Source: Alphaproteobacteria bacterium
GTDB taxonomy: Bacteria; Pseudomonadota; Alphaproteobacteria; SP197
Reading direction: 5' to 3'
NCBI GenBank assembly: GCA_965207785.1
Contig: CBDBNO010000010.1
Coordinates: 202,108 to 266,107, forward strand
Length of the DNA stretch: 64,000 bases
Part shown: piece after piece, positions 1,374-42,014 of the stretch
Numbering within the stretch: the first letter of the stretch is position 1
How the letters are laid out: every line of letters starts with the position of its first letter
Notes under the pieces: generated by a model
Databases searched by the model: none
What the model was told of the DNA's origin: nothing
What the model saw: only the letters and a program-made list of their open reading frames with translations
Program-made: the position numbers and the translations under genes

Positions 1374-1391
1374 GCTGGTTTCTCCTAGATG

Positions 1392-1925
1392 TCACGCGAA
1401 CAGGTTTCCAAGCCGAAAACGCATGGCGGACGTACTGACCTTGAAGCTTCTGGCCAACGCGGTCACCGCGCTTTCGTCGTCGATGTCGAACGGCTCGTTG
1501 CCCAGCGCCTTCGCAAGCATGGCTTTCGGCATCAATAGTTCCGCAGCAAAGAGGTTGGCTTCGATCTCCATCACGTCAACTCCTTCCGTCGATACCGAAT
1601 CGCGCATCAGCATCGGAGATGCCAAGGCTTTATCGACGTGCACCTCCTTGGTGATTTGCGACTTGTGAAGGGTCAAGTGGCCGCATTCATGGGCGATGGT
1701 GAAGCGCTGGCGGTTGGGATGGTGAAGAGCATTGACGCCGATTATCGGTTTGCCGTCCTTCAAGTAGATCATCCCGGATAGTTCGTCATCAAGCGGCGAA
1801 AATCTCAGTGTGGCGCCGAGTGTTCTTACAATCCGTTCGACAGGAACTGGCGGAGCCATCACTTCATGGTCGTCAAGAAGGGACTGTGCCCGGATCAAGA
1901 TAACCTTTCTTCGTCTTGGGTTCAT
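1392..1925 (-). CDS. ImmA/IrrE-family zinc metallopeptidase (COG2856, CapP-like)
   Basis: 177 aa with the HEXXH motif (IAHECGHLTL) in the family-typical position. Its ATG overlaps the stop of the upstream XRE gene (ATGA at 1925-1928). Confidence 0.85.
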   Translation of the reverse strand: MNPRRRKVILIRAQSLLDDHEVMAPPVPVERIVRTLGATLRFSPLDDELSGMIYLKDGKPIIGVNALHHPNRQRFTIAHECGHLTLHKSQITKEVHVDKALASPMLMRDSVSTEGVDVMEIEANLFAAELLMPKAMLAKALGNEPFDIDDESAVTALARSFKVSTSAMRFRLGNLFA

Positions 1926-2299
1926 CAGTCGGTCTCCGGTGTTTCTTGGTTATCGGTGTGCAGGGCATCACCTATCAGACGCAACACGTCCTGCCGTTGC
2001 GTTTCGCTGAGTCCCTCGGCGGGAAGGGGCAGCTCAGCAGGCTCGTCATCACGGGGGGGCGGCAGTGGCATTAGAACACCCGGGGAATCGAGGTCGAGTG
2101 CGGTGGCGATGGCATAAAGGTGATGCAGCAGGACTTGCTGACGGCCGGCTTCAATGTTGGCGAGTGACGCGCGCGAGATGCCGATTTCGGCAGCGAGCTG
2201 GGCTTGGGTGCGGGGAGCGCCCGCACGAAAGTGCCTGATGTGCCGGCCCACTTCCCTATAGATGTCACTTGGCCTCATGTGTGGATAGTACCGGAACAC
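1925..2299 (-). CDS. XRE-family HTH transcriptional regulator (CapH-like repressor) with acidic C-terminal tail
   Basis: HTH_3-like segment TQAQLAAEIGISRASLANIEAGRQ. Translationally coupled to the downstream ImmA gene. An alternative ATG start lies at 2278. Confidence 0.8.
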   Translation of the reverse strand: MFRYYPHMRPSDIYREVGRHIRHFRAGAPRTQAQLAAEIGISRASLANIEAGRQQVLLHHLYAIATALDLDSPGVLMPLPPPRDDEPAELPLPAEGLSETQRQDVLRLIGDALHTDNQETPETD

Positions 2300-2330
2300 A
2301 CAAGAGATGCCAAGCTCGCAAACAGCATAT

Positions 2331-2345
2331 GTTTGTTTAACAAAC
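2331..2345. promoter_or_regulatory. Inverted repeat GTTTG-N5-CAAAC in an AT-rich divergent intergenic region; candidate operator for the XRE regulator
   Basis: gtttgtttaacaaac read directly. It sits in the only AT-rich stretch (2320-2370) between the divergent XRE gene and the Ubl operon. A TTGACG -35-like hexamer is at 2365-2370. Confidence 0.35.
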
Positions 2346-2452
2346 GTGTAAGATGTTTTTTTTCTTGACGGGCCAGTTCATCGGTGCGATGCTACGGATT
2401 GAACCGGGCACAGAGGCGCCCGACCACCTGAACGGAAATGAGGTGTTGAACT

Positions 2453-3178
2453 ATGGATGAACGCAACCTGGTCGTAGAGGACCGCAACCATCCGCGGGAT
2501 GGTGTGGAACGAGAAAAGGGCCCGTCCGGCACCTTCACAATCAATGTGGGCAACGACGCTCTCGAGTTCCAGGGTGTAGACATGAAAGATCCGGTGCCCA
2601 CGGGCCGTCAGATTATCGAGGCGGCCAAGCTAGGCCCAGTCGAGGCGTTCCTGCTTTTCGCCGTCTCTCATGACCGCCGGCTCAGTGAAGTCAAACTTGA
2701 TGAGACCGTCGATATCCGCGGAGACGCCGAAAAGCTCTTCCTTGTCTTCAAGAACGACCGGTCTTGGCGCGGGCTCATCGACGGCAAGCGGTTCGAGTGG
2801 GGCGCGGAGGCAATCAACGGCCGCGTGCTGAAGTGGCTGGCTGGAGTCGATCCCGCAACGCACGGCGTTTGGCTCGAACTGCGAGACGAACCCGACCGGC
2901 TGATCGGCGACGACGAACAGGTGTCGCTGTCGACTGCAGGTGTCGAACGCTTTCGGACCGACCCGCTGTTTCGCGTGTGTGTCGAGGACGAATTCCATCC
3001 GTGGACTCGGCCGACCATCACGACTGAGGAGATTGCCGCGTTGGGCGGTTGGGATATCTCGCAGGGCGTTATCGAAGTCGACCCTGACCAGAACGAGCGC
3101 ACACTTTCGCCGGAAGAGGTCATCAAGCTGCGACCCGATGTGTCGTACGGCAAGAAGCTTCGTTTCAAGAGGGGATAG
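2453..3178 (+). CDS. Multi-ubiquitin (tandem beta-grasp) ubiquitin-like protein, BilA-like; C-terminus ...LRFKRG
   Basis: 241 aa. Residue pattern resembles the Multiubiquitin family that travels with prokaryotic E1/E2/JAB genes. It ends in a single Gly before the stop. AGGTG RBS 9 nt upstream. First gene of a 4-gene operon. Confidence 0.65.
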   Translation: MDERNLVVEDRNHPRDGVEREKGPSGTFTINVGNDALEFQGVDMKDPVPTGRQIIEAAKLGPVEAFLLFAVSHDRRLSEVKLDETVDIRGDAEKLFLVFKNDRSWRGLIDGKRFEWGAEAINGRVLKWLAGVDPATHGVWLELRDEPDRLIGDDEQVSLSTAGVERFRTDPLFRVCVEDEFHPWTRPTITTEEIAALGGWDISQGVIEVDPDQNERTLSPEEVIKLRPDVSYGKKLRFKRG

Positions 3179-3180
3179 CT

Positions 3181-3570
3181 ATGAACTCGCGGATCGAGTC
3201 CGAGTTGGCACTTCTCCGGCTGCACTACTCCAGGGTGGACTATCTGGCGGAGAACGCGATGCACTGGTTTAGGGTTGAGATGCTCAAGACGCCCAAGAAA
3301 TGGGCGCCGGCAGAAATCCCCGTCGTGTTCGCCGTCACCGAAGGCCACCCTGGCGCGCAGCCTTACGGCTTCTTTGTGCCCGGGGAGTTGAACTTGGATG
3401 GCAATCCGCCCTCCGAGCATGGTGCGCCCCACCCCCCTCCGTTCGAGGGCATCTGGCGGTTTCTGTCGTGGCAGCCGGAAGGATGGCACCCAACAGGCGA
3501 TGTGCGCTCGGGCTCGAATCTGTGGGGCTGGGTACGGACATTCATGCACCGGTTGAGGGAAGGAGTCTGA
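3181..3570 (+). CDS. E2-like (UBC-fold) protein, BilB position; contains no cysteine
   Basis: 129 aa in the operon position of the E2. Has a HPG...GFFV segment resembling the E2 HPN...GxIC region, but there is not a single Cys in the ORF. Starts 2 nt after the Ubl stop. Confidence 0.5.
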   Translation: MNSRIESELALLRLHYSRVDYLAENAMHWFRVEMLKTPKKWAPAEIPVVFAVTEGHPGAQPYGFFVPGELNLDGNPPSEHGAPHPPPFEGIWRFLSWQPEGWHPTGDVRSGSNLWGWVRTFMHRLREGV

Positions 3571-3574
3571 AGGG

Positions 3575-4093
3575 ATGAACACCCTCATGTTAGACAAAGA
3601 CCTTCAGCGCCGCCTCTGGTCCCATCTCCTGCGCAAGGACTCGATGCAAGAACAGGCCGCTTTCCTTTTCTGCATGACGGAACCCGCAGATTGCGGGGTG
3701 ACGTTCGTGGCGGTTGATCAGGCCTTTCTGGGACCAGACGACTTCGTCGCCCAGCGTACTGACTACCTGGAACTGACGAATGAGACCCGGATCAGGCTGA
3801 TTAAGCGAGCGCATGTCCTAGGAACCTCGCTGGCCGAGCTTCACTCGCACCCTGGCCCTTGGCCGGCAGCTTTTTCTCTATCCGACCGGATTGGATTGAG
3901 AGAAACCGTACCGCATATGCGGTGGCGCTTGAAAAGGCGGCCCTACCTGGCCGTGGTGGTGGCGCCGTCAGGCTTCGACGCACTGGTTTGGTCGCGGGAC
4001 GCCAGGATTCCCGAGCCTCTGGCCGGGATCGACATTGGCGGCGAGCTCATGACGCCGACCAACTTCTCACTCGGAGGATGGGACGATGACTGA
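3575..4093 (+). CDS. JAB/MPN+ (JAMM) metallo-isopeptidase, BilC-like
   Basis: 172 aa with an upstream Glu and ELHSHPGPWPAAFSLSD, i.e. the HxH...S..D JAMM motif. GGAAGGAG RBS. Confidence 0.8.
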   Translation: MNTLMLDKDLQRRLWSHLLRKDSMQEQAAFLFCMTEPADCGVTFVAVDQAFLGPDDFVAQRTDYLELTNETRIRLIKRAHVLGTSLAELHSHPGPWPAAFSLSDRIGLRETVPHMRWRLKRRPYLAVVVAPSGFDALVWSRDARIPEPLAGIDIGGELMTPTNFSLGGWDDD

Positions 4094-4943
4094 GGATCGC
4101 TTTGATCGGAATGAACAGTTGTTTGGCAAAGAGGGCCAAGCTCGCTTGCGGCGTACCCGTGTGGCCGTCATGGGGGCAGGAGGGTTGGGCAGTCACGTTA
4201 TTGCGCAGGTTGCACTGCTCGGGGTGGGCGACATAGCGGCGGTTGACCGACAATGCGTCGCACGTTCAGATCGCAACCGCTATCTCGGCGTGTGGGACAA
4301 GGATCCGATTCCCGGGTCGCCAAAGGTGGCGCTCGCGAAACGCCATATCCACTTGATTGATCCCAGGATTACGGTCACACCGATTAAGGACGACATACTC
4401 TCGGCGCCCAGCCTCGGCGCGATTCAAAAGGCCGATTTCGTTTTCGGATGTGTGGACAATGACGGGGTCCGATTCTTCATCAACGAGGCATGTCTTGCCT
4501 ACGAGAAGCCGCTGATCGATCTGGCTTCCGACGTGCCTGAACCAGGGGTGTTCGGCGGCCACGTTGCGATCGTCTCTGGTAGTCTTGGCTGCATGCACTG
4601 CCTCGACCTTCTTGATCCCGACGAGGTGCGCCGATACCTCTCACCGCCCGAATTAGTTGAAAACGAAGACGCTGTCTACGGGATCAAGGCGAGCGCGCTT
4701 GCGGAGACCGGCCCTTCGGTTGTATCGGTGAATGGGGCAGTCGCCTCACTTGGCGTGACTGCTTTCATGGCACTAGCGACAGGAATGCACCTCCCTTACG
4801 CATTCCTGACCTATCGTGGAGACCGAGGTACAGTCACGCGCAAGACGATCAAGGCTGCCGAAGACTGCTACTATTGCTCCGTGGTGCGCGGTCAGGGTGA
4901 GTGGGCGAATCTTGAGCGGTACTTTCGAAAGGCCGCTGCTTGA
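4086..4943 (+). CDS. ThiF/MoeB-family E1-like ubiquitin-activating enzyme, BilD-like
   Basis: 285 aa. Rossmann motif VAVMGAGGLGSHV. Two Cys pairs (GCMHC, CYYC) form a MoeB-like Zn site. Overlaps the JAB gene by 8 nt with a GGAGGA RBS. Confidence 0.85.
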   Translation: MTEDRFDRNEQLFGKEGQARLRRTRVAVMGAGGLGSHVIAQVALLGVGDIAAVDRQCVARSDRNRYLGVWDKDPIPGSPKVALAKRHIHLIDPRITVTPIKDDILSAPSLGAIQKADFVFGCVDNDGVRFFINEACLAYEKPLIDLASDVPEPGVFGGHVAIVSGSLGCMHCLDLLDPDEVRRYLSPPELVENEDAVYGIKASALAETGPSVVSVNGAVASLGVTAFMALATGMHLPYAFLTYRGDRGTVTRKTIKAAEDCYYCSVVRGQGEWANLERYFRKAAA

Positions 4944-4945
4944 AC

Positions 4946-5007
4946 ATGCATGCCGATCATATTGAGCACTGCGCCGTACATCCTACGGACTTTCGGCATG
5001 CATTGTG
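4946..5007. terminator. Long imperfect hairpin immediately after the E1 stop (possible operon terminator / island boundary structure)
   Basis: catgcatgccga (4946-4957) pairs with tcggcatgcat (4997-5007). A nested ccgta/tacgg stem is inside. No clean U-tract follows. Confidence 0.3.
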
Positions 5008-5186
5008 AGTTCCCTGTCTGTCTTGCCAACTGACCGCCTACCACGTCTTCCAATCCACGTCCTCGAACAGATGCGCACGCGTGTACTGCCGCCCATTGAT
5101 ATTGGCCTGTGAAACAGAGAATTCCGCTACTTGTGGAGTATGGCCTGGGCACTTCCGCTAAGAGGAACCGAACCGCTGACGCGACG

Positions 5187-5456
5187 TCAAGACTGTCCCG
5201 GCATTCGGAGCTCGAGGTGAATAGAGTCCACGGTAGCTAGTGAGATCAGCTTCACGGCCTCAGCCACAATGTATCCGTCGCTCGCCTCGATCACCAAGCA
5301 ATCGAGCCCTGCCCGAGCGTAGCGAGGGCATAGATCCAGGATCACGTGGTGCTCCCAACCGGAAGGACGACCACTCCAAATTGTCGGATCGTGATTGCGA
5401 AGTTTATCGGCTTGAAGTAGTCGGGTACGCCGTGCCATTGCCTGACTGCGGACCAC
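5187..5456 (-). CDS. Hypothetical small ORF / possible gene remnant
   Basis: 89-aa ORF starting at GTG 10 nt after the proW stop. Its GC3 (about 58%) is far lower than the flanking genes and there is no recognisable motif. Confidence 0.2.
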   Translation of the reverse strand: MVRSQAMARRTRLLQADKLRNHDPTIWSGRPSGWEHHVILDLCPRYARAGLDCLVIEASDGYIVAEAVKLISLATVDSIHLELRMPGQS

Positions 5457-5466
5457 GAGATCTTCG

Positions 5467-7548
5467 TCAGGTGGAAAGGCCGAGGTCGCGTTTCTTGCCG
5501 GCGGCCCAGGCCTGGATGATGCGGTCGGCGATCATGGCCATGAGGGCCATGGATCCGCCGGCGATGACGCCCTGGCCAAACTTGGCGTTGGTGAGGCTGT
5601 CGTAGACCCATTGGCCGAGACCCTTGGTGCCGACGAGGGCGGCGATGACGAGCATGGCGAGGGCGAACATCACCACCTGGTTGAGGCCCACCATGATCTC
5701 CGGGATCGCGAGGGGGAGCTTGACCTTCCAGAGGACCTGGCGCTCGGTGCAGCCCATCATGCGGGCGGCCTCGATGGCCACGGGATCGACGTGGCGGATG
5801 CCGTGCTCGGTGTAGCGGATCGCCGGCACGATGGCGTACATGATGATCGCCAGGAGCGCCGAGAAATCCCCCACCAGGAACACCATCACCACGGGGATGA
5901 GGAAGACGAAGAGCGGCATGGTCTGCAGGGTGTCGTTGATCGGCCGCAGGACGGCGGAGACACGGTCGTTCTGCGCCGCCCAGATTCCTAAGGCCCCGCC
6001 GGCCACGAAGCAGATGATGACCGAGGTGGCGGTGAGGTAGAACGACAGCATGGCCCGTGGCCAGGCGCCGCTCACCAGCATGAAGAGCATGCCGAGGAAG
6101 GCGAACAGCGCAACCCTCCAGCCGCCGACCTGAAAGGCGATGAGCGTGACGGCGGCCATGAAGACGGGCCACGGCGTGCCGGACGAACCGTAGTAGAAGA
6201 GGATGCCCAGGAGCGCCGTGGCGACGGCGGCGCGCCAGCCGCCCAGCCTTGCCGCCAGGGTGCCGATGGCCACCAGGATCATCCAGTAGATGACGGAAGC
6301 CAGCGCCGTCATCTCGAACCCCCACGAGGTGGGCCGCGCAATCCTTTCGAGGCCCGCCTTCATGGGCAGCATGAAGAAATAGAGCGTGTAGGTCTTGATG
6401 GCGTCCGTGGTGTCGAAGAAGTTGCGGGTGAACCAGGAGACCGCCGTGTTGAGGCCCTCGGCCGGGTAGATGATCCAGGCATCGGGATAGGCGTTGAACA
6501 CCGGCACCGCCCATGCGAGCAGCGAGCCGGCGGCGACCGCTGCGACCATGGAGGTCAGCATGGGATGGCGGGCGATGTAGTTCCCTGAACGATGCACGTG
6601 GATCTCGCCCGAGCGTTCGGCGAAGCCGCGGCTGATGCGGTCCATCATCATGGCGATCAGCACGATGACCAGTCCGGCCAGCAGGCTCTGGCCGGTCTGG
6701 GCCTTGCGCATCGTGGAGAGCACTTCCCAGCCGATATCGGCGAAGCCGCCGATGATGGCGGCGATGATGACCATGGCGAGTGCCGCCATGATGGTCTGGT
6801 TGACGCCGATCATGATCGTGTGCATGGCGGCCGGAATGCGCACCAGGAAGAGAAGCTGGAAACCGTTGCAGCCGGACATCTGGCCGCTCTCGATGACGTT
6901 GTCGGGAACCCGCTGCAGACCCAGCATGAGATTGCGGACCATGGGCGGGCTGGCGTAGACCGCCGAGGCCACCATGCCGACCACCGGCCCGATGCCGAAG
7001 AGAATCAGGATGGGAATGAGATAGGCGAACGTCGGCACCGTCTGCATGACGTCGAGCGTCGGTTCGATGACGCGCCGGGCCCAGCGGAACTGGAAGCCGA
7101 GCAGTCCCATGACGAACCCGATCATGATCGAAAGCGGCACGGACATGCAGACCAGCGCCAGGGTCGACATGCTCTCGTCCCAGTATCCGACGACCACCAT
7201 GTAGAAGAGCGAGGCCGTGCAGAAGGCGGCGAGACGCCAGCCCTTGGCGGCGTAGGCGATGATCGCCACGATGGCGATCGTGACCGGCCACGGCGACGTC
7301 TGCAGCACGATCTGGATCCCCTCCATCGGCCATTCGAGGGCATCGGAAATCAACCGGAAGAGCGGCTTGAAGTTGGCCGTGAACCAGTCCATCAGATACT
7401 CGAGGCCGGCCTCGATGGGGAGAATCCAGCCCTTCGGATACTTGACGAGCCACTTCGCGTCGTCACGCAGGATGAGGCAAACAATCGCCAGGACGCCGAA
7501 GACCAGCCAGACCAAGAGCCTGGGCGGCAGCAGGCGCGCCGGGTTCAC
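5467..7548 (-). CDS. Glycine betaine/proline-type ABC transporter permease, duplicated (fused double ProW-like) transmembrane protein
   Basis: 693 aa, very hydrophobic, with two BPD_transp_1-like halves. ATGA overlap with the downstream ATPase gene. Confidence 0.85.
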   Translation of the reverse strand: MNPARLLPPRLLVWLVFGVLAIVCLILRDDAKWLVKYPKGWILPIEAGLEYLMDWFTANFKPLFRLISDALEWPMEGIQIVLQTSPWPVTIAIVAIIAYAAKGWRLAAFCTASLFYMVVVGYWDESMSTLALVCMSVPLSIMIGFVMGLLGFQFRWARRVIEPTLDVMQTVPTFAYLIPILILFGIGPVVGMVASAVYASPPMVRNLMLGLQRVPDNVIESGQMSGCNGFQLLFLVRIPAAMHTIMIGVNQTIMAALAMVIIAAIIGGFADIGWEVLSTMRKAQTGQSLLAGLVIVLIAMMMDRISRGFAERSGEIHVHRSGNYIARHPMLTSMVAAVAAGSLLAWAVPVFNAYPDAWIIYPAEGLNTAVSWFTRNFFDTTDAIKTYTLYFFMLPMKAGLERIARPTSWGFEMTALASVIYWMILVAIGTLAARLGGWRAAVATALLGILFYYGSSGTPWPVFMAAVTLIAFQVGGWRVALFAFLGMLFMLVSGAWPRAMLSFYLTATSVIICFVAGGALGIWAAQNDRVSAVLRPINDTLQTMPLFVFLIPVVMVFLVGDFSALLAIIMYAIVPAIRYTEHGIRHVDPVAIEAARMMGCTERQVLWKVKLPLAIPEIMVGLNQVVMFALAMLVIAALVGTKGLGQWVYDSLTNAKFGQGVIAGGSMALMAMIADRIIQAWAAGKKRDLGLST

Positions 7549-8612
7549 TCCGCATCCTCCCCGGCATGGCTGTCGGCGAGAGAGCTCAACACCATCTGGG
7601 CAGTGATGCTGCCAACGATGGCGCCCTCCCCGTTCTTCACGGCGATGACGTCCGAACCTTCGGCGAAGCGCGGCATGATCTCTTCGAGCGTGGCATGTTC
7701 GTCGACAACGTCATCGGTGGCGGGATGGGAAGCAGCAGCCGTGGCGATGTCGCCGGCGGTGATGACCTTCACCCGCGGCACGTCCTGGGTGAACTCGCTG
7801 ACATAGTCGTCGGCCGGCTGCATCACCACCTCGGCGGGGGTGCCGATCTGCACGATCCGGCCATCCTTCATGATGGCGATCCTGTCCGCCAGGCGCAGGG
7901 CCTCGAGGAAGTCGTGGGTGATGAAGACGATGGTCTTGTGGAGAAGTTGCTGCAGACGCAGGAACTCGTCCTGCATCTGCCGGCGGATCAGCGGATCGAG
8001 AGCGGAGAAGGGCTCGTCAAGGAACCACAGCTCCGGTTCGACAGCCAGGCTCCTGGCGATGCCGACACGCTGCTGCTGGCCGCCCGACAGCTCGCGCGGA
8101 TAGCTCGTCTCGCGCCCTCCCAGTCCGACGAGCTCGATCATTTCCATCGCCCGGGCGCGCCTTTCCTCCTTGGCGATTCCCTGGATCTGCAGGGGGAACG
8201 CCACGTTCTCGAGCACCGACAGATGCGGTAGGAGACCGAAGTTCTGGAACACCATGCCCATCTTGTGGCGGCGGATGTCGATCAGCTTGTCCCTGGAGAC
8301 CTGCAGGAGATCCTCGCCATCGAGAATCACCTCCCCTGCGGTCGGCTCGACGAGCCGGGAGAGACAGCGCACGATCGTCGATTTCCCGGAACCCGACAGG
8401 CCCATGATGACGAAGATCTCGCCGATGTGGACGTCGAACGTGACATCGCAGGCGGCACCGATGTGACCTGACTCGTTGATGGACCCGATCAGGCTTGTGG
8501 GATCGGCCACATCGCCATGGCCGTCCGTGAAGAACCTGTCGGCGTCGGGACCGTACACCTTCCAGACATGCCTGCACGTCAGCTTGACTTCCTGATCATC
8601 GGTTCCCGTCAT
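7545..8612 (-). CDS. proV: Glycine betaine/proline ABC transporter ATP-binding protein (ProV-like) with C-terminal CBS region
   Basis: Walker A (GLSGSGKST), ABC signature (LSGGQQQRV) and Walker B (LDEPFSALD). Confidence 0.9.
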   Translation of the reverse strand: MTGTDDQEVKLTCRHVWKVYGPDADRFFTDGHGDVADPTSLIGSINESGHIGAACDVTFDVHIGEIFVIMGLSGSGKSTIVRCLSRLVEPTAGEVILDGEDLLQVSRDKLIDIRRHKMGMVFQNFGLLPHLSVLENVAFPLQIQGIAKEERRARAMEMIELVGLGGRETSYPRELSGGQQQRVGIARSLAVEPELWFLDEPFSALDPLIRRQMQDEFLRLQQLLHKTIVFITHDFLEALRLADRIAIMKDGRIVQIGTPAEVVMQPADDYVSEFTQDVPRVKVITAGDIATAAASHPATDDVVDEHATLEEIMPRFAEGSDVIAVKNGEGAIVGSITAQMVLSSLADSHAGEDAE

Positions 8613-8782
8613 GATCTCCTCGCATGGGCCAAGCCTCGCTCCCGGACTGTCCCACTCCCCCCAGGACGGGACAATCTATCCGGTTGGTTCACAAAACGCC
8701 ATGATCCGGGCCGACGGTCTCGACCGGCCCTCGAAACAAGTGCACTATGGGACGCCATCTTGAAGGAGTCTGAAAGCAGGCC

Positions 8783-9916
8783 ATGCTCAGGACCGAGGAC
8801 ATCGAAGGCCTTGACCGCCCGACGGCTCAAGCCCGCGGCCTGCCGGGACATGCCTACACATGCGAGGACTTCGCCCGCCACGAGTACGCCCGGCTCTTCG
8901 CCAGGACCTGGACATTTGCCGGGTATGCCCACGAGGTGCCGGATGCCGGATCCGTCATGCCGAGGACACTGGCCGGCGTGCCCCTCCTCTTCACGCGCAC
9001 CCGTGACGGCGAGGTCAGGTGCTTCCACAACATCTGCACCCATCGGGGTACACAGCTCGTCGACGAGGCTGCCAGTGGTCTTGCCACCCTGCGCTGCCGC
9101 TATCACGGCTGGACCTACGATCTCGATGGCGCGCTGCGCCTGACACCCCACTGGGGCGGTCACAACCAGGGCCAGGGCGAAGGCTTCGAGAAGTCCTGCC
9201 ATGGTCTCAAGCCCGTTCGCATGGCGCGCTGGCACGACTGGATCTTCGTCAACGTCGATGGCCTCGCCGAACCCTTTGCCGACTACGCCGCCCCCTTCAT
9301 GGCCCATGTCGCCGAGTACGACCTCGACGACGCCACCTGGGCGCTGACGCTGCGCTACGACATTGCCGGCAACTGGAAGCTGGTGGCCGAGAACTACCTC
9401 GAGACGCTCCATCTTAACTTCGTGCACACCGTGCTCGCCGAGGCGGCTCCCTTCGAGCAGCACGAGGTCATCGCCGAGGACGCCTGTCTGGGCACCATCA
9501 TCAACGTCGGTCTGCCAGCCACCTGGACCAAGGCCGAGTCCCTTCCCCGCTGGCCGGGTATTGATCACGCCAACCGGACGGCCAAGAACCTGGCGCTCTT
9601 TCCCAACTTCAAGTTCGTGATCGGCCCCGACCATGCCTGCTCCATGGTGGAGTTTCCCGATGGCGCCGGCCAGTCCCACCAGCGCTGGGACTTCTACTTC
9701 CACGGCGACGGGGCCACGGCGCCGCGTTACGCCGAGTCAAGGAAGGCGATCATCGAGTTCTTCGACACCACCAATGTCGAGGACTTCAATGCCGTGGAGG
9801 CGGTGCACAAAGGCCACATGTCCCCGGCCATGCAGGGCGCCCGCTTCAACGGCATCTGGGAGGGGGGCGTGCACCACTTCCAGAAACTCGTTGCCCACTA
9901 CATGAGCGAACCATGA
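8783..9916 (+). CDS. Rieske [2Fe-2S] non-heme iron oxygenase alpha subunit (betaine/carnitine-type monooxygenase-like)
   Basis: The pair CTHRG...CRYHGW gives the CxH-x17-CxxH Rieske ligands. 377 aa. Adjacent to the betaine transporter genes. Confidence 0.8.
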   Translation: MLRTEDIEGLDRPTAQARGLPGHAYTCEDFARHEYARLFARTWTFAGYAHEVPDAGSVMPRTLAGVPLLFTRTRDGEVRCFHNICTHRGTQLVDEAASGLATLRCRYHGWTYDLDGALRLTPHWGGHNQGQGEGFEKSCHGLKPVRMARWHDWIFVNVDGLAEPFADYAAPFMAHVAEYDLDDATWALTLRYDIAGNWKLVAENYLETLHLNFVHTVLAEAAPFEQHEVIAEDACLGTIINVGLPATWTKAESLPRWPGIDHANRTAKNLALFPNFKFVIGPDHACSMVEFPDGAGQSHQRWDFYFHGDGATAPRYAESRKAIIEFFDTTNVEDFNAVEAVHKGHMSPAMQGARFNGIWEGGVHHFQKLVAHYMSEP

Positions 9917-10794
9917 ACACAGACGTCTTCATCACCTGTGCCGTGACCGGCGCCGGCGACACCACTGACAAGAGTCACCATGTGCCGGTGACGCCGGAGG
10001 CCATCGCCGATGCGGCCATCGAATCCGCCCGTGCGGGTGCAGCCATCGCCCACATCCACGTGCGCGACGTGACGACCGGCAAGGGCAACCGGGACAGGGA
10101 GGCCTTCCGCGAAGTCGTGGCACGGGTGCGCGACAGCGAGTGCGACGTCATTCTCAACCTGACCACGGGCATGGGCGGCGACTACATGCCCGATGCGGAT
10201 GATCCGGGGCACGCGTCGGCGGAAAGCGACATGACATCGCCCGAGGAGCGGGTGCTCCATGTCGAGGAACTGCTTCCGGAAATCTGCAGCCTCGATGTCG
10301 CCACCATGAACTTCACCGACGGCGCCTTCATCAACGTCCCCGATCACCTGAGGGTCATGGGCAAGCGAATCGCCGAGGCCGGCGTGAAGCCGGAACTCGA
10401 GTGCTTCGATCTGGGTCACGTCAGGCTCGCCAACCAGCTCATCTCCGAGGGAGTCATCGAGGAGCCGCCGCTCTTCCAGATCTGCCTCGGCGTGCCCTGG
10501 GGAGCTCCGGCGGATCCAGAATCGCTGATCGCCATGCGCAACCTGCTGCCGGCGAACGCCGAATGGTCGGCCTTCGGGATCAGCCGCATGCAGATTCCCA
10601 TGGCAGCGCAGGCCGTGATCTCGGGCGGCAACGTGCGCGTCGGTCTCGAGGACAACCTCTACCTGTCCAGGGGTGTGCTGGCGACCAACGGCCAGCTCGT
10701 GGAGCGCGCCGTCGAGGTCGTCGAACGCCTCGGCGCGCGGATCATGAGTCCCGCCGAGACGCGCCAGAAACTGGGCTTGACGAAGCAGTTCTGA
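9913..10794 (+). CDS. BKACE family enzyme (3-keto-5-aminohexanoate cleavage enzyme-like, DUF849)
   Basis: 293 aa with the typical N-terminus [11 protein letters not shown]...HIHVRD. ATGA overlap with the Rieske gene. Confidence 0.8.
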
Positions 10795-10811
10795 AGCTAA
10801 GGCGGCGGACC

Positions 10812-11225
10812 ATGGTGGAGAAGATCGTCAGGACCGATGAGGAATGGCGGTCCCAGCTGACCGAGGAGCAGTTCAGGGTCACGAGGCGCGCCGGAACCGA
10901 AAGGCCCTTCACCGGGATCTATCACGGAACCGGCGAACCGGGTCTCTATCGCTGTGTGTGCTGCGGTGCCGCACTCTTCGATTCCGCGACCAAGTTCGAG
11001 TCCGGCACCGGGTGGCCGAGTTTCTGGGCCCCGGTCGACGACGAGGCGGTCGAGCTCAAGTCCGACAGGAGCATCTTCTTCATGCCCCGGACCGAGGTGG
11101 TCTGCGCCCGCTGCGACGCACATCTCGGCCACGTCTTCCCCGACGGACCGCCCCCGACCCACCAGCGCTACTGCATGAATTCGGCCGCCCTTACCCACGA
11201 GAAGGCGAACGACGGCGGGACGTGA
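10812..11225 (+). CDS. msrB: Peptide-methionine (R)-S-oxide reductase MsrB
   Basis: SelR fold signature with both CxxC pairs ([21 protein letters not shown]). The supplied ORF has a spurious N-terminal extension; the start is set at the ATG after the BKACE stop. Confidence 0.85.
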
Positions 11226-12229
11226 AGCCCGGACCTCTCAATCTCATCACCGATGTCGACGGCATCCTCGTCGGTCAGGCGGAAGATCACCGCGTCAGGA
11301 CCGGTGTCACCGCCATCGTCCCGAGGGAACGCGTCACGGCCGCCGCCGACGTCAGGGGCGGCGCCCCGGGCACGCGCGAGACCGGCACGCTCCATGTCGC
11401 CAGCCTCGTCGACGCCGTGGACGCGGTCGTGCTGTCGGGCGGCTCGGTCTTCGGCCTCGATGCGGCAGGCGGCGCCGTGGCACGGCTGGCCGAGGAAGGA
11501 CGGGGGTTTCCCACCTCAGCCGGCAGGATTCCTGTGGTGCCGGCGGCCATCCTCTTCGACCTCGCAAACGGCGGCGACAAGGACTGGGGCCGACAGTCTC
11601 CCTACCCTGATCTGGGCTACCGGGCGGTCAAGGCGGCGGCGGACCGTTTCGACCTGGGCAACGCCGGCGCCGGGCTTGGCGCCAGCGCCGGAACCCTGAA
11701 AGGGGGAACGGGGAGCGCCTCGGCGGTCACCGACAGCGGTCTCCAGGTGGGAGCCCTCGTTGCGGTCAACGCTGTCGGATCGACGGTGATCCCCGGCACT
11801 TCGACGCTGTGGGCGGCGCTCTTCGAACAGGCCGGCGAGATGGGGACGGCGCCACGCTCGCTGCCCGAAGGTCCGGTGGACCTCGAGGACGAGTTCAAGG
11901 GCTTCGCGGCTGAGAACACCACCATCGGCGTCGTTGCGACCAATGCGACCCTCGACAAGGGGGCGCTCAATCGCATCGCCATCATGGCCCATGACGGGCT
12001 GGCCCGGGCCATCCGTCCCGTTCACACGCCCTTCGACGGCGACACCCTGTTCGCGCTCGCCACGGCGAGGCACACGGATGCAATCGATGCCGTCACGCTC
12101 GCACGCCTGGGCTCGATGGCGTCAGACTGCGTGACGAGAGCGACGGGAAGGGCCATGGTGGCAGCCCAGACCCTTGATGGCATGACGAGCTACAGCGACT
12201 GGAGGGATGGCAGGTGCCAACAGCAGTGA
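11222..12229 (+). CDS. P1/S58 family peptidase (DmpA/L-aminopeptidase-like)
   Basis: GTG start overlapping the msrB stop (GTGA). [22 protein letters not shown] is a typical DmpA N-terminus. Same frame as the long ORF 10844..12229. Confidence 0.75.
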
Positions 12230-35157: not shown

Positions 35158-35479
35158 ATCCCTTGCGTCATGCATCCGGAGCTCATGCCGTTTGCCACAA
35201 AGGCTTCCATCAACGACATCACCCGATGAGCCGAGCGTGGCAGGGTCTGCCTGGCGCCGGTTGATTCGGTGCTTCATGGAGGCAGCGGCCGCTTGAACAA
35301 ACGTCGGCACCTAACGTCTCGTCCCAAGCACCTGCGTGATGGCTCCGCCTCGACACCTTTCCGGCGGGCAAGCGGACAGCGATCCGGAATCAGTCCAGTG
35401 AGGATATTGAAAAATTATTCCATTAATGGTGTAGTGGGATATGAGGCATTCGACACTGTCACATATGCCAACGTCGTCC

Positions 35480-35658
35480 GGCAATGGGCAGCGCCAATGC
35501 AAGAGTGCGCGGACAGCGCGGTGTGCTCCTGGGCCGTGTCGGAGAGATTGCGGAGGTCGCGCGAGTCACCTTGTGGCTCTGTTCCAACGCCGCCGCCCTA
35601 CATGACGGGCACGACAATCAATGTCAGCGGCGGACGCGAAATCTATGTCAGGGTTTGA
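35480..35658 (+). pseudogene. Remnant of an SDR gene (C-terminal about 55 codons only, with 1-nt frameshift)
   Basis: One frame reads LLGRVGEIAEVARVTLWLCSNAAA. After a 1-nt shift near 35598 the next frame reads YMTGTTINVSGG, i.e. the canonical SDR C-terminus. No N-terminal part is present upstream. Confidence 0.5.
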
Positions 35659-38005: not shown

Positions 38006-38443
38006 ATGGAACCGATCAGTTTCGACCTCGGCGGTCGGACCGCGATCGTCACCGGTGCAGGGCGGGGCATAGGCCGCGCCTGTGCGCTTGCTCTTGCTGC
38101 CAATGGTGCCAACGTCGTGGCCTGCTCGCGCACACTGGACCAGGTCGAGGCTGTGGTGGGGGAGGTCGAGGCCATGGGACGAGACGGTCTCGCCATCGCA
38201 GCCGACGTGACCAACCAGGATGACGTCGAGGCCATGGTCGACAAGGTCATCACGCGCTTTGGCGGTATCGATATCCTGGTGAACAACGCCGGTACCTTCA
38301 TCATGAAGCCGCTGGTGCCGACCGAAGGCTGGAAACCGTCCGTCGGCAAGGTCATTCCGGGCTTCAACGAGCCCTTCGACGACACGGACTGGTACAAGAC
38401 GATGGATTGGCGTTCATACTACACCCCGGTTTGCGTGCCTTGA
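38006..38443 (+). pseudogene. SDR gene, N-terminal half (interrupted by mobile element insertion)
   Basis: TGAGRGIG...NNAG...DDTDWYKTMD, then the reading frame runs into foreign sequence and stops. The matching C-terminal half is at 41580..42014. Confidence 0.7.
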
Positions 38444-40644
38444 TCGAACAGGCTGGGACTGTCGGTTGGAACCCTGATTCGCAACGCTTTTTTTCTTCCC
38501 GCCTTGATGTGGATGGCGTCCAGCTCGCCGCGCTTTACACGCTGCAACACGGTCTGGCGTGACACGCCGAGGCGGTTCGTGGCCTCGAGCATCGGCACAT
38601 AGCCAGGCGGCGCCTCTTCCATGAACCGGGGACGGAATGCCTCGTTGATGCGGATGCGCCAGGGGGCGCCGGGAGTGGCCTGTTCGCCATCAAGGAAGCC
38701 GTCGGCAAGCCATCGATGGACGGTCGAGGTGGCCACCCCGAGGACGTTCGCGGCTTTCCGGATGTTGACGAGGGTTCCGTCATCGGTCCGGGTCGATGGG
38801 TCAAAGCGCGGGATTTTCCAGTGACCGCGGAAGTGGCGAACGCGGTCGGCGGTGAACCGGAGACCTTGTGCGGTGGTTTTCCCCTGGCGGCAGAGGATGC
38901 CGGCGATGACATCGTCAGGGTGGAACTGCGCGAGGCGGCGCACCAGATCGACGGTGTTCTCGTCGGTCCGGACTCCACCCTGGCGCTTTTTCGGACGGTC
39001 CAGCTCGATTTCCGTCAGGCAGCCGGTGCACCAGTGAAGGGTGAGGTGGATGTGCGATGCCTCCCTCGGAGCCCGAATGACGACATCCTGGAGCACGGTG
39101 CGCAGCAGTTCTTTCTTGTCCCGAGCCGTGGTCGTGGAGGCATTCCAGACCTGGCGGAGATCCTTTCCCAACGCGATGAGGGCATCAAGGTCCGCCGGTT
39201 CAAGGGGACGGGGACGTTCCTGCCGGCGGCGGGCCAGTTCCGCCTGGCTGTCGTCAAGCGCCTTGAGGCATTGCTCCCATTCCGCCTCCAGCCCGCGCGC
39301 CACCAGGCGGTTTTCCGGATCGACGGCACGATAGCGCCGTTCGGCTCTGGCGGCTTCATAGCGAGCCCGCTCGACCTCCATCTCCCAGTGCGCAAGAATC
39401 CGCTCCCGGTCGGCCTCGACCTTTCCGGCGGCCTGCAGCGCCGCTTCGATCCCGGCCGGCTGGATGGCGTCCAGCACGGCCTCGCCGACGGCATGGTCGA
39501 TCTTTGTGGCGCCCACATAGAGGCACAAGCGGGTCCGTTCCGCCGTCAACTCGCCGGCCGACCTGCAGTGATAGCCCGGCGATGCGGTGCGGCCGGTATA
39601 GTGGGTCATCAAACGGCGGCCGCATTCCCCGCAGACAGCAAGGCCCTGCAACAGGGCCGATCCTTCCCGGACCGCACCCTGACTGGCTCCGTGTTTCTGC
39701 GGCCGGGCGTTGGTGGCGATGCGGGCAAGGATCGCTTCGTGGGTTGCCCAGTCGATGTAGCCTTGATGGTGGTCGCGAATGAGGACGGGCCATTCCGAAC
39801 GTGGCCGCATGCGGATGCGCTTGCGTACGGTTCCGGTATCGTCGATCACGGTGTCCTGACGCCTTCGTCCATAGGTATAGGCTCCGGCATAGACCGGATG
39901 GGTGAGAACCATGTGGATGATGCGGTAGGACGGCTTGACCCAACGGATGGTCTCGCGCGGCCCGCGCACCGGAAAGACCCGCTCCTGGCGCGAGAACCAG
40001 CGCCACACACCGCGCGCAGAGCCGAACTCGGGGAAGCGTTCGAACACCGTGCGGATCGCCGCCTGGACCTGCTCGTCGGGGTCGATGAGGAGTTCTCCGT
40101 CTCCGTCACCGCGAACATAGCCTGCCGGGACGCTGCGATAGAGTTCGCCGCGCGCCGCCTTGCTGCGGATGCCGCCGTCGAGGCGGGCGCGCAGGAAGTG
40201 AAGTTCGGCCTCGCTCATCGTGCCCTTGAGGCCGAGAACCAGGCGGTCGTTGAACAGGCCAGGATGGTAGATGCCGTCGGCATCGGCGATCAGGGTGTTG
40301 GTGAGGCTGCACAGGTCGATCAGCTTGTACCAGTCTGTATTGTTCCGGGCCAGGCGGGACGCCTCCAGGCCAAGCAGGATGCCGACCTTGCCCATCGCCA
40401 CCTCGGTCGTGACCCGGGCAAAGCCGGTTCTGCCTTCCGTACTGGCGCCGGAGCGTCCGAGGTCTTCGTCGACGACATGGATCTGGTCAGGCCGCCATCC
40501 CAGATCCCGTGCACGGTCGACCAGGGCGTACTGGCGGCGGGTGGATTCCTGGTTGTGCTCGACCTGGGAAGCCGAAGACTGGCGGACATAGACGATGGCG
40601 CCGCGTTCCAGATGCGCCGGGGCGATTCGCATGTCAGCCATCAT
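38419..40644 (-). CDS. Large serine recombinase (resolvase/invertase N-domain + recombinase domain + zinc-ribbon + C-terminal HTH)
   Basis: Catalytic region IVYVRQSSASQ...RLARN. Cys-cluster (CGECGRRLM...C). About 740 aa. The start is set at MMADMRI with a GGAGA RBS. Confidence 0.85.
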   Translation of the reverse strand: MMADMRIAPAHLERGAIVYVRQSSASQVEHNQESTRRQYALVDRARDLGWRPDQIHVVDEDLGRSGASTEGRTGFARVTTEVAMGKVGILLGLEASRLARNNTDWYKLIDLCSLTNTLIADADGIYHPGLFNDRLVLGLKGTMSEAELHFLRARLDGGIRSKAARGELYRSVPAGYVRGDGDGELLIDPDEQVQAAIRTVFERFPEFGSARGVWRWFSRQERVFPVRGPRETIRWVKPSYRIIHMVLTHPVYAGAYTYGRRRQDTVIDDTGTVRKRIRMRPRSEWPVLIRDHHQGYIDWATHEAILARIATNARPQKHGASQGAVREGSALLQGLAVCGECGRRLMTHYTGRTASPGYHCRSAGELTAERTRLCLYVGATKIDHAVGEAVLDAIQPAGIEAALQAAGKVEADRERILAHWEMEVERARYEAARAERRYRAVDPENRLVARGLEAEWEQCLKALDDSQAELARRRQERPRPLEPADLDALIALGKDLRQVWNASTTTARDKKELLRTVLQDVVIRAPREASHIHLTLHWCTGCLTEIELDRPKKRQGGVRTDENTVDLVRRLAQFHPDDVIAGILCRQGKTTAQGLRFTADRVRHFRGHWKIPRFDPSTRTDDGTLVNIRKAANVLGVATSTVHRWLADGFLDGEQATPGAPWRIRINEAFRPRFMEEAPPGYVPMLEATNRLGVSRQTVLQRVKRGELDAIHIKAGRKKALRIRVPTDSPSLFDQGTQTGV

Positions 40645-40858
40645 CCGTCTCCTGCCCGCAGACAGGCTGGAGCACGGTGCGTGCCATGAGATGGGCGAGG
40701 TGTTCCAGAACCGCCTGGCGGACAGCCGCATCGAGGGTGGACCACACGCGAGCATGAGACGCCTGGTGTGGCAGGAAGAGGTCCAGCTGCATGGCCATGC
40801 CACTTGATCGTGCGATGCATCATGTGATGGAGCATGGTAACGTTACTGGGGGTCGGGA

Positions 40859-41152
40859 TCAATCCCGTCCGAAGCCGCGCGGCAAGTCCACCTCGTTCAG
40901 GGCGTCGAGATCGAGCGCATCGATGGCCTGCAACTTGGCATGAACCGCCGTATCCTGAAGCCCCTCGGGCAAGGCTTGAAGCCAGTTGCGATAGTGCTCC
41001 TGCAAGGCGATCAGGGTGTCCACCGCATCGTGCCAGCGTTGCGGCTTCGAGCGCCGGTCCTTGGGACGCCGGTACTGCACGGGGCAGGCGCCGGCCTTGA
41101 GCCGCTCGCGGTAGCGGCGTTGCTTCTCGGCAGGGGTAAGGGGCATCGTCAT
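40859..41152 (-). CDS. Hypothetical protein carried on the recombinase element
   Basis: 97-aa ORF co-oriented and upstream of the recombinase, with high GC3. Function unknown. Confidence 0.4.
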   Translation of the reverse strand: MTMPLTPAEKQRRYRERLKAGACPVQYRRPKDRRSKPQRWHDAVDTLIALQEHYRNWLQALPEGLQDTAVHAKLQAIDALDLDALNEVDLPRGFGRD

Positions 41153-41187
41153 TCTCCTGACGGCGGATGGGCCATGTCGATGCCATG

Positions 41188-41550
41188 TTAGCGTGACCGC
41201 TCAGGTTGGGCGTGGGACGACTGCCCTGGCGAACATCCTGCGGTGAGCGCGGGAGCGGATTCCGGAGAACCCGTCGGGGAGTCCGGGCCCACCTCGGTGC
41301 GTTGGCGAATCCTTTCGATCCGGTCACGCAATCTCTGCAGCTCCCGCACTCCGACAGTGGGCAGTTCGGAAGTGTCATCGGTATCGGACGGCCCGGCGGT
41401 TCCCGCATCGGTCCATTCCACGGGCACATATCGCTGGCTCTCATCCGGGAACAACAGCAGGAACTGGGGCTGGTTCTGGCGGCGGGCCCGGCCCAGGACA
41501 TTCAGGGACTGTCCCTCGAACACGTGGGCCTTGCGGGTGATGCGCACCAC
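41188..41550 (-). CDS. Hypothetical protein carried on the recombinase element
   Basis: 120-aa ORF, first gene of the element in the transcription direction. Function unknown. Confidence 0.4.
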   Translation of the reverse strand: MVRITRKAHVFEGQSLNVLGRARRQNQPQFLLLFPDESQRYVPVEWTDAGTAGPSDTDDTSELPTVGVRELQRLRDRIERIRQRTEVGPDSPTGSPESAPALTAGCSPGQSSHAQPERSR

Positions 41551-41579
41551 ATCTGGAAAGTCATGGATGTGGGTAGTCT

Positions 41580-42014
41580 GTGACGTGTTCCTTCAACACC
41601 AACGTGACGAGCGTGTTCCGCTGTTGCCAAGCCGTGGTTCCCCACATGATGGCGCAGCGCAAGGGTCGCATCATCAACATCGGCTCGATCGATGCGGAAC
41701 ATGGTCTGCGCTTTGCCGCAGCATACTGCGCAAGCAAGGGCGCCGTGAAGTCCTTGACCAAGGCGTTGGCGCGGGAGTGGGTGAGCTACAACATCACGGT
41801 CAACTGCGTGTCCCCGGGCTACGTCGACACCGATCTTGTACCCGCGGTGATGCACAACGAGGAACTCAAGGCTCAGACGGCGAAGGCGAACGTACCCATG
41901 CGGCGTTTCGCCAAGCCCGAGGAGATTGCCGCGCCCATGGTCTGGTTGGCCTCGGACCTCGCAGACTATGTCACCGGCGAGTCGATCTACATTGATGGCG
42001 GCGTTCTGGCTTAA
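41580..42014 (+). pseudogene. SDR gene, C-terminal half (complement of 38006..38443)
   Basis: TNVTSVF...YCASKGAV...YVTGESIYIDGG. Begins with no start codon or RBS of its own immediately after the element end. Confidence 0.7.

Follow-up and report, generated by a model that had tools for sequence, protein, structure and literature searches.

The closest described systems to the element treated here include the transposons Tn4451 and Tn5397 of Firmicutes, in which a large serine recombinase (LSR), TnpX and TndX, respectively, is the sole transposase and a 2-nt core, GA in both cases, is left directly repeated with no other duplication. The same behavior is known for the Durrant multi-targeting LSRs, which use many insertion sites with a common motif; a TT core was reported for one of them, and the domain DUF4368 was found in 63% of their TndX/TnpX-like clade (PMC10083194). 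The present analysis concerns a 64,000-nt stretch of DNA (hereafter the window) from an Alphaproteobacteria bacterium (contig CBDBNO010000010.1, positions 202,108 to 266,107), in which a gene for a short-chain dehydrogenase/reductase (SDR) is interrupted by an insert at window positions 38404–41593. The insert is very probably an active element resembling an insertion sequence (IS), with an LSR as its transposase, and its copy in the SDR gene a recent off-target insertion. The split SDR is the ordinary consequence of an unusual element.

The element shares with TnpX, TndX and the multi-targeting LSRs an LSR as apparently sole transposase, a directly repeated 2-nt core without other duplication and many insertion sites with a common motif, and departs from them in several respects. 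No DUF4368 match was found in its LSR or in five relatives, and a tandem pair of MerR/Xis-type helix-turn-helix (HTH) motifs stands at the C-terminus instead. The core is AA/TT rather than the GA of TnpX and TndX, the element is IS-sized and without resistance cargo, its target is long and specific, being the catalytic motif of group II intron reverse transcriptase (RT) genes, and its family is hosted by Proteobacteria, Acidobacteria, Binatia and others rather than by Firmicutes. As to the definition of multi-targeting (one LSR cluster, by 90%/50% criteria, with more than three unrelated target gene clusters), most sites of the family lie in one gene family, that of the group II intron RT, and some in non-RT genes. 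Phage serine integrases (phiC31, Bxb1, SPbeta SprA/YokA) have the same order of catalytic, recombinase, zinc-ribbon and coiled-coil regions, and in their case too the attachment (att) half-sites flank a non-palindromic dinucleotide as an imperfect inverted repeat; unlike them, the present element comes without a phage genome and in multiple copies, a genome offering it many attB sites, and its LSR carries an extra HTH extension of about 215 aa and has given one product across a mismatched core. IS607 is likewise of IS size and has a serine recombinase as its transposase; the dinucleotide over which strands are exchanged is identical in both partners and reads GG (PMC6188088). Its TnpA is small, with an N-terminal HTH and no recombinase or zinc-ribbon domains, and is often accompanied by a tnpB gene; IS607 lacks terminal inverted repeats and shows hardly any target specificity, whereas the family described here combines a complete LSR body with a long preferred target. 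The C-terminal HTH of the LSR weakly matched the IS607 TnpA HTH (E = 1.5e-4), and membership in the IS607 family was rejected on account of the LSR-type domain order with a C-terminal HTH, the AA core, the inverted-repeat ends and the lack of a TnpB gene. Elements such as skin/sigK, SPbeta/spsM, the XisF fdxN element and gin/gerE resemble the insert in that a recombinase element lies in coding sequence and its precise removal would restore the gene; these are single-copy, lineage-conserved and developmentally regulated (PMC5595907), whereas the window copy is recent, strain-specific, off-target and derived from a multi-copy selfish element. A full-text literature search, with ISfinder outside its scope, returned no description of an RT-homing LSR element family and nothing relevant on DUF5372 and LSR insertion sequences.

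The Interrupted SDR Gene and Its Empty Site

An earlier note, made from the letters of the window, had described an SDR N-half and C-half split by an LSR element, and both halves were recognized by Pfam. The open reading frame (ORF) at 38006–38443 on the plus strand matched adh_short profile positions 2–92 of 195, and the ORF at 41580–42014 on the same strand matched adh_short positions 104–192 of 195 and adh_short_C2 positions 100–235 of 236. A search with the joined SDR returned an intact SDR of 272 aa (P0001), 99% identical to the query, located on a 14.8-kb Logan assembly contig of a related strain (L001; L numbers denote fetched loci). Over its 14.8 kb this contig follows the window in the same order, with a nt identity of about 97%, and the neighbors are alike in both, namely an IclR regulator, 3HCDH/thioesterase, sulfatase and biotin carboxylase. 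The BLAST alignment breaks at window positions 38403 and 41593, both corresponding to L001 position 8105, where the empty site reads AAGACG-AT-CAACACC. The empty site that the note had asked for was thereby found, and its objection that the halves might come from different paralogues fails.

Joining 38403 to 41594 yielded a 272-aa SDR whose protein is 100% identical to P0001. The restored gene differs from the L001 allele by 14 nt, 13 at codon position 3 and one at codon position 2, with no amino acid change. It has the motifs TGAGRGIG (residue 16), NNAG (residue 93) and YCASK (residue 177), the cofactor motif, NNAG and YxxxK of a classical SDR (usually about 250–270 aa) thus standing in one chain. 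An in silico join does give a full-length SDR, but the join proposed in the note (38407 to 41599) is out of frame; 38407 to 41598 is in frame, but places MD where the intact gene has IN. Beyond 38403 the 5' ORF reads through element sequence as far as 38443. The empty site in L001 and the exact restoration of the SDR protein establish the split as real, precise and recent, and the view of a compact LSR-driven mobile element precisely inserted inside coding sequence is supported. In the source genome, the SDR has been knocked out by a recent event, and the downstream operon probably too.

A further SDR piece, an older fragment unrelated to the element, precedes the Ldh_2 gene in the window as well as in L001. 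This short ORF (window 35269–35658, plus strand; L001 5096–5359, 87 aa as called there) has a typical SDR C-terminus (…TTINVSGGREIYVRV) and an adh_short_C2 match.

Ends, Junctions and Recombinase of the Element

The features of the locus are collected in Table 1. The size of 3.2 kb given for the insert in the earlier note was accurate (3190 bp), but the content of three genes was not, as four co-oriented minus-strand ORFs were found. The small ORFs preceding the LSR number three (120, 97 and 54 aa) instead of two, and the LSR has 740 aa from the ATG at 40641 instead of 742. All four ORFs showed ratios of nonsynonymous to synonymous polymorphism (pN/pS) below 1 against relatives, with values of 0.23–0.33 for the LSR, 0.20 for ORF2, about 0.5 for ORF1 and 0.46–0.49 for ORF3.

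Table 1. Coordinates of the interrupted SDR gene, the inserted element and its parts in the window, with the RT attachment site of an identical copy.
Feature	Position	Strand	Remarks
SDR 5' part	38006..38403	+	codons 1–132 and the leading AT of codon Ile133; colinear with L001 to 38403
SDR 3' part	41594..42014	+	third base of the Ile133 codon to stop; colinear with L001 from 41593/41594
Mobile element	38404..41593	-	3190 bp, the crossover dinucleotide (TT 41592–41593) included once; missing from L001
Left junction dinucleotide AT (attL-type)	38402..38403	.	same as the empty-site dinucleotide
LSR-distal terminal inverted repeat	38404..38422	.	GGATTGGCGTTCATACTAC (GGAT-N10-ACTAC); overlaps the LSR stop codon
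LSR	38419..40641	-	740 aa from ATG 40641 (741 aa from ATG 40644)
ORF3	40634..40798	-	54 aa; 8-nt overlap with the LSR start
ORF2	40859..41152	-	97 aa (gene callers: start 2 codons later, 95 aa); all-helical
ORF1	41188..41550	-	120 aa; N-terminal ~60 aa kept family-wide (F.G..L.V...LL..PDGS...VP..WTD)
ORF1-proximal terminal inverted repeat	41573..41591	.	reverse complement GGAACACGTCACAGACTAC (GGAA-N10-ACTAC)
Right junction dinucleotide TT (attR-type)	41592..41593	.	element's own core, AA on the LSR strand
RT attB of L169			…GATTTGTCCAACTAC-TT-CGGCGAGATACCGCAC…

The two ends of the element form an imperfect inverted repeat with equal spacing, GGAW-N10-ACTAC. The termini were defined only via relatives, a plain search for inverted or direct repeats at the ends of the insert having been uninformative before that. 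The left junction reads AAGACG-AT-GGATTGG and the right junction GTGTTCC-TT-CAACACC. The hexamer ATGGAT, previously taken as a motif shared by the junctions, was found at chance level, a 6-mer being shared in 60% of shuffled junction neighborhoods; its right copy lies 25 nt inside the element, and its left copy consists of 2 nt of target and the terminal GGAT of the element. The crossover is placed instead at a 2-nt core flanked by the GGAW-N10-ACTAC inverted repeats, which replaces the attL/attR motif suggested at first.

In the LSR, a catalytic domain at about residues 15–166 (PF00239, E = 4.8e-16, profile positions 1–144 of 145) is followed by a recombinase domain at about 191–311 (PF07508, 4.1e-11), a zinc ribbon at about 330–389 (PF13408 Zn_ribbon_recom, 6.6e-6) and a coiled-coil region to about 525. 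The catalytic serine region, which was to be checked by closer alignment, is intact, with Y18-V-R20-Q-S22-S (YVRQSS) and L-E-A-S-R-L-A-R (SRLAR), and S22 is the nucleophile predicted by motif alignment. The extra C-terminal tail of about 215 aa contains the two MerR/Xis-type HTH motifs, at about 621–647 and 686–723 (Pfam PF12728, NCBIfam excisionase TIGR01764), and is also kept in relatives L003, L007, L010 and L029. The closest solved homologue in the PDB was SPbeta SprA/YokA, aligned over residues 62–524 including the coiled-coil region, and the PHROGs match was phrog_95 integrase (E = 2.7e-50). The domains and the 2-nt crossover with inverted half-sites are those of a large serine recombinase, the window copy being the exception to a shared crossover dinucleotide, with AT and TT. 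The best NCBIfam match was XisF (NF041201); with 70.9 bits against a cut-off of 375, assignment of the LSR as an equivalog of XisF of the fdxN element was discarded.

A repeat misplaced inside the SDR by a metagenome assembler was also considered. The family is repetitive, and mismatched flank pairs do occur in some metagenome contigs. Here, however, both flanks resume one gene at base-pair precision, the junctions fall exactly at conserved termini, and one of them carries the target's own dinucleotide; a mis-join would not mimic a true recombination product at both ends, and an assembly artefact is therefore extremely improbable.

Copies and Relatives of the Element

Copies of the window element were found at other sites on other contigs. 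L166/L169 (ENA ERZ25069580, ctg89981) is 100.000% identical to it over 3190 bp; L168, on a contig of 1.07 Mb from that sample as well, has an identity of 99.97%, L167 is 99.94% identical, and L170, a whole-element contig with almost no flank, is 99.91% identical. In L167, L168 and L169, AA was present at both junctions. The exact LSR protein was encoded on 10 contigs and the exact ORF1 protein on eight. The closest distinct relative, L002, has 86% nt identity and the same four ORFs, and lies in an RT gene. Because copies of 99.9–100% identity sit at other sites, the window element is, as judged from this near-identity, active or very recently active.

More distant relatives were numerous. A scan of GTDB species genomes (one genome per species) gave 106 relatives, the Joint Genome Institute (JGI) metagenomes gave 301 more, and in the PLSDB plasmids 924 places were found on 469 records, chiefly of rhizobia. 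Two copies were counted in Binatia, three in a Rhizobiaceae metagenome-assembled genome (MAG), three in Cystobacter fuscus and at least seven in an Acidobacteriaceae MAG, many of the latter at contig ends. Within-genome copies are 99.9–100% identical over about 2.75 kb, and the identity ends sharply at common termini. Some relatives occupy entire contigs of 2.6–4.4 kb, the signature of collapsed repeats. The earlier description of the type as poorly characterized agrees with the generic labels in public records: among the 40 plasmid entries listed, 38 name the LSR 'recombinase family protein' and one 'transposase'.

Both ends were located in 48 loci with the patterns GGAA-N10-ACT[AG]CC and T[AT]TG-N7-[AT]TCC, and the lengths ranged from 2.70 to 3.21 kb, the termini being conserved in at least 45 complete elements; the end pairing of L130 is probably false, and this locus was left out of the site analysis. 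Applied to clades of 35–43% identity, a generic regular expression for the termini recovered the L043 group only. With the LSR on the plus strand, AA stands before the element and AA after it, and contig L012 is exactly 'aa-GGAAAC…GATCC-aa'. Of the distinct sites, numbering 38, all but three had one and the same dinucleotide at the two junctions (35 sites; AA as read along the LSR strand and TT along that of the target), which is the pattern expected of serine-recombinase exchange over a 2-bp overlap. In being short, with defined ends, near-identical multiple copies and mobility genes only, the element has the operational features of an insertion sequence, with the caveat that ORF2 may be a passenger.

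These data also bear on the possibility that the insert is a decayed prophage or integrative and conjugative element (ICE) that used an attB in the SDR and of which the integrase module alone survives. The phrog_95 match and the prophage integrase found as closest solved homologue would fit such an origin. It is nevertheless highly improbable, given conserved inverted-repeat termini directly at both junctions, a constant size of 2.7–3.2 kb in at least 45 copies across many phyla, whole-element contigs (L012, L170) that end at the core dinucleotide, 100% identical copies at different sites and no phage or conjugation genes in the element.

Group II Intron RT Genes as the Usual Target

In silico deletion of the element from L007, L008, L016, L017, L019 and L037 gave long ORFs opposite to the LSR strand, and these were of the group II intron RT/maturase type (RPLGIP…, GTPQG..SPLL, YADD). 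The RT junction was always at D-x-D-[IL]-x-x-[YF]/F-[DG]-x-[IV]-x-H (the oblique stroke marks the insertion point), and a target position weight matrix (PWM) built from 34–35 unique half-sites translates to WVVDVDIRGYF/DRIPHDELM. Such RT sites made up 26 of 38 by the strict pattern and about 30 of 38 with obvious variants, and in every case the LSR gene ran antisense to its target. RVT_1 and GIIM were recognized on the halves of the split genes, and the Rfam families group-II-D1D4 and Intron_gpII (domain V/VI) flank the interrupted ORF in L008, L017 and L169, so that these hosts are group II introns by both protein and RNA features. As for the copies of the window element itself, excision in silico from L166/L169 restores a 484-aa RT ORF (VDCDLSNY/FGEIPHAE), the two parts of which had RVT_1 and GIIM calls; in L168 an RVT_1+GIIM gene adjoins the element at one end, and L167 is RT-like by flank translation alone (DADLIKP/FGEIPHAE), with no domain call behind it. 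As the comparison of sites shows, the preferred target of the family is the DNA for this motif in group II intron RT ORFs.

The remaining sites lie in host genes (SDR, LysR, thiolase and others), and some of these mimic the RT motif, for example L082 and the LysR gene of L010, whose junction reads KDADVVIA/FDLIEHEQ. Because the RT genes of group II introns hold near-identical copies and about 30 of the 38 sites of the family, the element is no specialist of this SDR or of host genes generally, and its SDR copy is regarded as off-target for the same reason.

A domesticated switch like skin/sigK, SPbeta/spsM or the XisF fdxN element, turning the SDR and the downstream operon on by excision under some condition, was weighed as well. 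Excision would give an undamaged SDR, all 14 nt differences from the intact allele being protein-neutral, and XisF is the best NCBIfam match of the LSR; that match, however, lies far below the cut-off. The 97%-identical relative has its SDR uninterrupted, the family is multi-copy with 100% identical copies in group II intron RT genes, and the mismatch between the attL (AT) and attR (TT) cores should hinder excision. A gene switch is thus very unlikely.

In the Rhizobiaceae MAG CAWUFE02 contig_7 (L010 5493–8253, L011, L028), three identical copies were all observed at non-RT sites (LysR, thiolase and an unassigned one). A sister clade with an LSR 38% identical was found in the Planctomycetota MAG MFD00822.bin.2.173 (L043 5572–8201, L044 5573–8201 and L046 5571–8201). 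Its elements measure 2.63 kb, have homologous termini (GGTC-N10-ACTGC … TATG-N7-CACT) and a GA core, and lie in IS4-like DDE transposase genes, exactly at the Glu codon of the Y..RW.IE motif. Comparison of these sites with the RT sites suggests that different clades may home to catalytic motifs of different mobile-element genes.

Small ORFs of the Element

The conserved N-terminus of ORF1 was found upstream of all related recombinases examined (L002–L017). Its similarity to Pfam DUF5372 was below threshold, with E = 0.017 for the window copy and 2.4e-4 for the relative in L017, and its equivalents in plasmids are usually uncalled in the annotation. ORF3 is kept across the family in position and in pattern (MQL.L...W..L....R.A...LA.L.A), is labeled a hypothetical protein by the prokaryotic genome annotation pipeline (PGAP) in plasmids, and gave no match in Pfam, NCBIfam or PHROGs; its 8-nt overlap with the LSR suggests translational coupling. 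ORF1, ORF3 and the Xis-like HTH pair of the LSR could be involved in directionality, end binding or regulation.

ORF2 is confined to the subgroup of the window element and L002 within the family, with 89% aa identity between the two. It belongs to a family of helical proteins of about 95 aa; its 170 homologues include none with a Pfam domain, and relatives were placed at L171 945–1235 and L172–L176 5001–5294. Its AlphaFold2 (AF2) model has four helices with a mean predicted local distance difference test (pLDDT) score of 87.5, and a Foldseek comparison of the model with the PDB gave no fold match. In an IS21-like element, IstB is immediately followed by one homologue, and ORF2 has the look of an accessory or passenger gene shared among unrelated mobile elements. 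Another homologue, on 23 contigs, was observed in a small chromosomal islet beside hisS/aspS.

Insertion into the SDR Gene and Proposed Mechanism

The comparison of copies shows precise insertion, no duplication beyond the core, inverted-repeat ends, a shared dinucleotide at both junctions, multiple identical copies and a strong preference for the target, in which the orientation is fixed. The mechanism proposed is modeled on TnpX/TndX and the phage serine integrases: the element would be excised by the LSR as a circle, whose joined ends would form an attP-like sequence, GTAGT-N10-WTCC-AA-GGAA-N10-ACTAC. For the window element, the end-to-end joint of about 60 bp would read CCGGGGTGTAGTATGAACGCCAATCC-AA-GGAACACGTCACAGACTACCCACATCC, with the circle junction …CAATCC-AA-GGAACACG… and CAATCCAAGGAACACG as the sequence of reads across it. 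The LSR would then synapse attP with the target and cut both at the 2-nt core, which is AA as read along the LSR strand and TT in the coding strand of the target; strand exchange and religation would follow, target duplication being limited to the shared dinucleotide and integration presumably being accomplished by the LSR alone.

At the SDR gene, the core was mismatched, AT in the target and TT in the element, and no placement of the 2-nt stagger avoids the mismatch. The AT/TT junction pair needs a rare tolerated event or repair after insertion. In the proposed course of events, two heteroduplex junctions with one mispair each would have been formed and replicated without repair, and this lineage would have inherited the two junctions as they stood in a single strand, with AT at the left one and TT at the right one. 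The mismatched cores would hinder excision from the SDR; if excision did occur, the codon would become wild-type ATC (Ile) or TTC (Phe), with the restored sequence AAGACGATCAACACC or AAGACGTTCAACACC. The junctions of L028, AT and AA, are the mirror of the window mismatch.

The SDR site reads GAC-ACG-GAC-TGG-TAC-AAG-ACG-AT/C-AAC on the target coding strand, and the RT sites of the identical element read GAT-TGC-GAT-xTG-TCC-AAC-TAC-TT/C-GGC. The two line up in two Asp codons, in orientation (LSR antisense) and in the 'xTC' codon. Strong mimicry of the RT target by the SDR site was not supported by the PWM rank or the modest pairwise matches given below, and the resemblance is probably due to chance. 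A second-best RT-PWM match in the window on both strands (±30-nt PWM) was noted at 38345–38406 (minus strand, core 38375–38376), 27 nt upstream of the insertion and still within the SDR, with the sequence 'gag ccc TTc gac gac', but was left unused; with shorter PWMs it ranked 26–79, and it may be a chance match.

Several observations weigh against an active LSR-driven element with an off-target copy in the SDR. The SDR site matched the RT sites of the identical element at only 21–26 of 58 nt, where 15 ± 3.6 are expected, and ranked 1372–11271 among the approximately 121,500 positions of the window by PWM (top 1–9%). Canonical serine integrases (phiC31, Bxb1) are not known to carry recombination to completion when the central dinucleotides are mismatched. 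No circular or tandem att junction was present in any fetched locus, circle excision being drawn from analogy. Metagenome contigs can be chimeric at repeats, as was seen in the flank pairs L100/L104/L109 and L115/L116, and the searches of Pfam, NCBIfam and PHROGs and that of the PDB with ORF2 gave no function for the small ORFs.

A wider proposal can be made tentatively, and with slightly less than even confidence. The elements may constitute an undescribed LSR-driven IS family, consisting of an LSR with tandem Xis/MerR HTH motifs, a DUF5372-like ORF and an ORF of about 52 aa, and live as hyperparasites that home base-precisely into the RT motif of group II introns, with a sister clade at the Glu codon of IS4-type DDE transposases, occasional mis-insertion into host genes and possible exchange across a one-base core mismatch. 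The elements are a second kind of serine-recombinase insertion sequence beside IS607 and mechanistically distinct from it, and are common in many soil phyla, yet unflagged as mobile by generic annotation. They also provide a case of a mobile element with a 'safe haven' in the catalytic motif of another mobile element's gene, which bears on how selfish elements limit damage to their hosts and on how group II introns come to be inactivated. Dozens of natural attP/attB pairs with a long, conserved target that encodes a protein motif, together with the off-target product across a mismatched core, should be useful for the study and engineering of LSR specificity and of the strictness of the central dinucleotide.

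Other Members of the Family

A correspondence of the rhizobial y4bA/y4bD genes of pNGR234a to the LSR/DUF5372 pair was considered and dropped, the pair not being in the first 30 kb of pNGR234a and the literature search having returned nothing on it. In Candidatus Binatia (CBDCOS010000002.1), L003 and L004 4577–9261 share 4.7 kb at 97% identity, comprising the element and the surrounding intron; the extent of the shared sequence suggests that the intron with its embedded element may have been duplicated as one unit. The junction dinucleotides of the two differ, being AA in one and TA in the other. A family member was also found beside xylS in the TOL-type Pseudomonas putida plasmids pWW53 (L084, NC_008275.1 76003–78215) and pDK1 (NC_014124.1), in which the LSR is annotated as two fragments, corresponding to a frameshifted copy.

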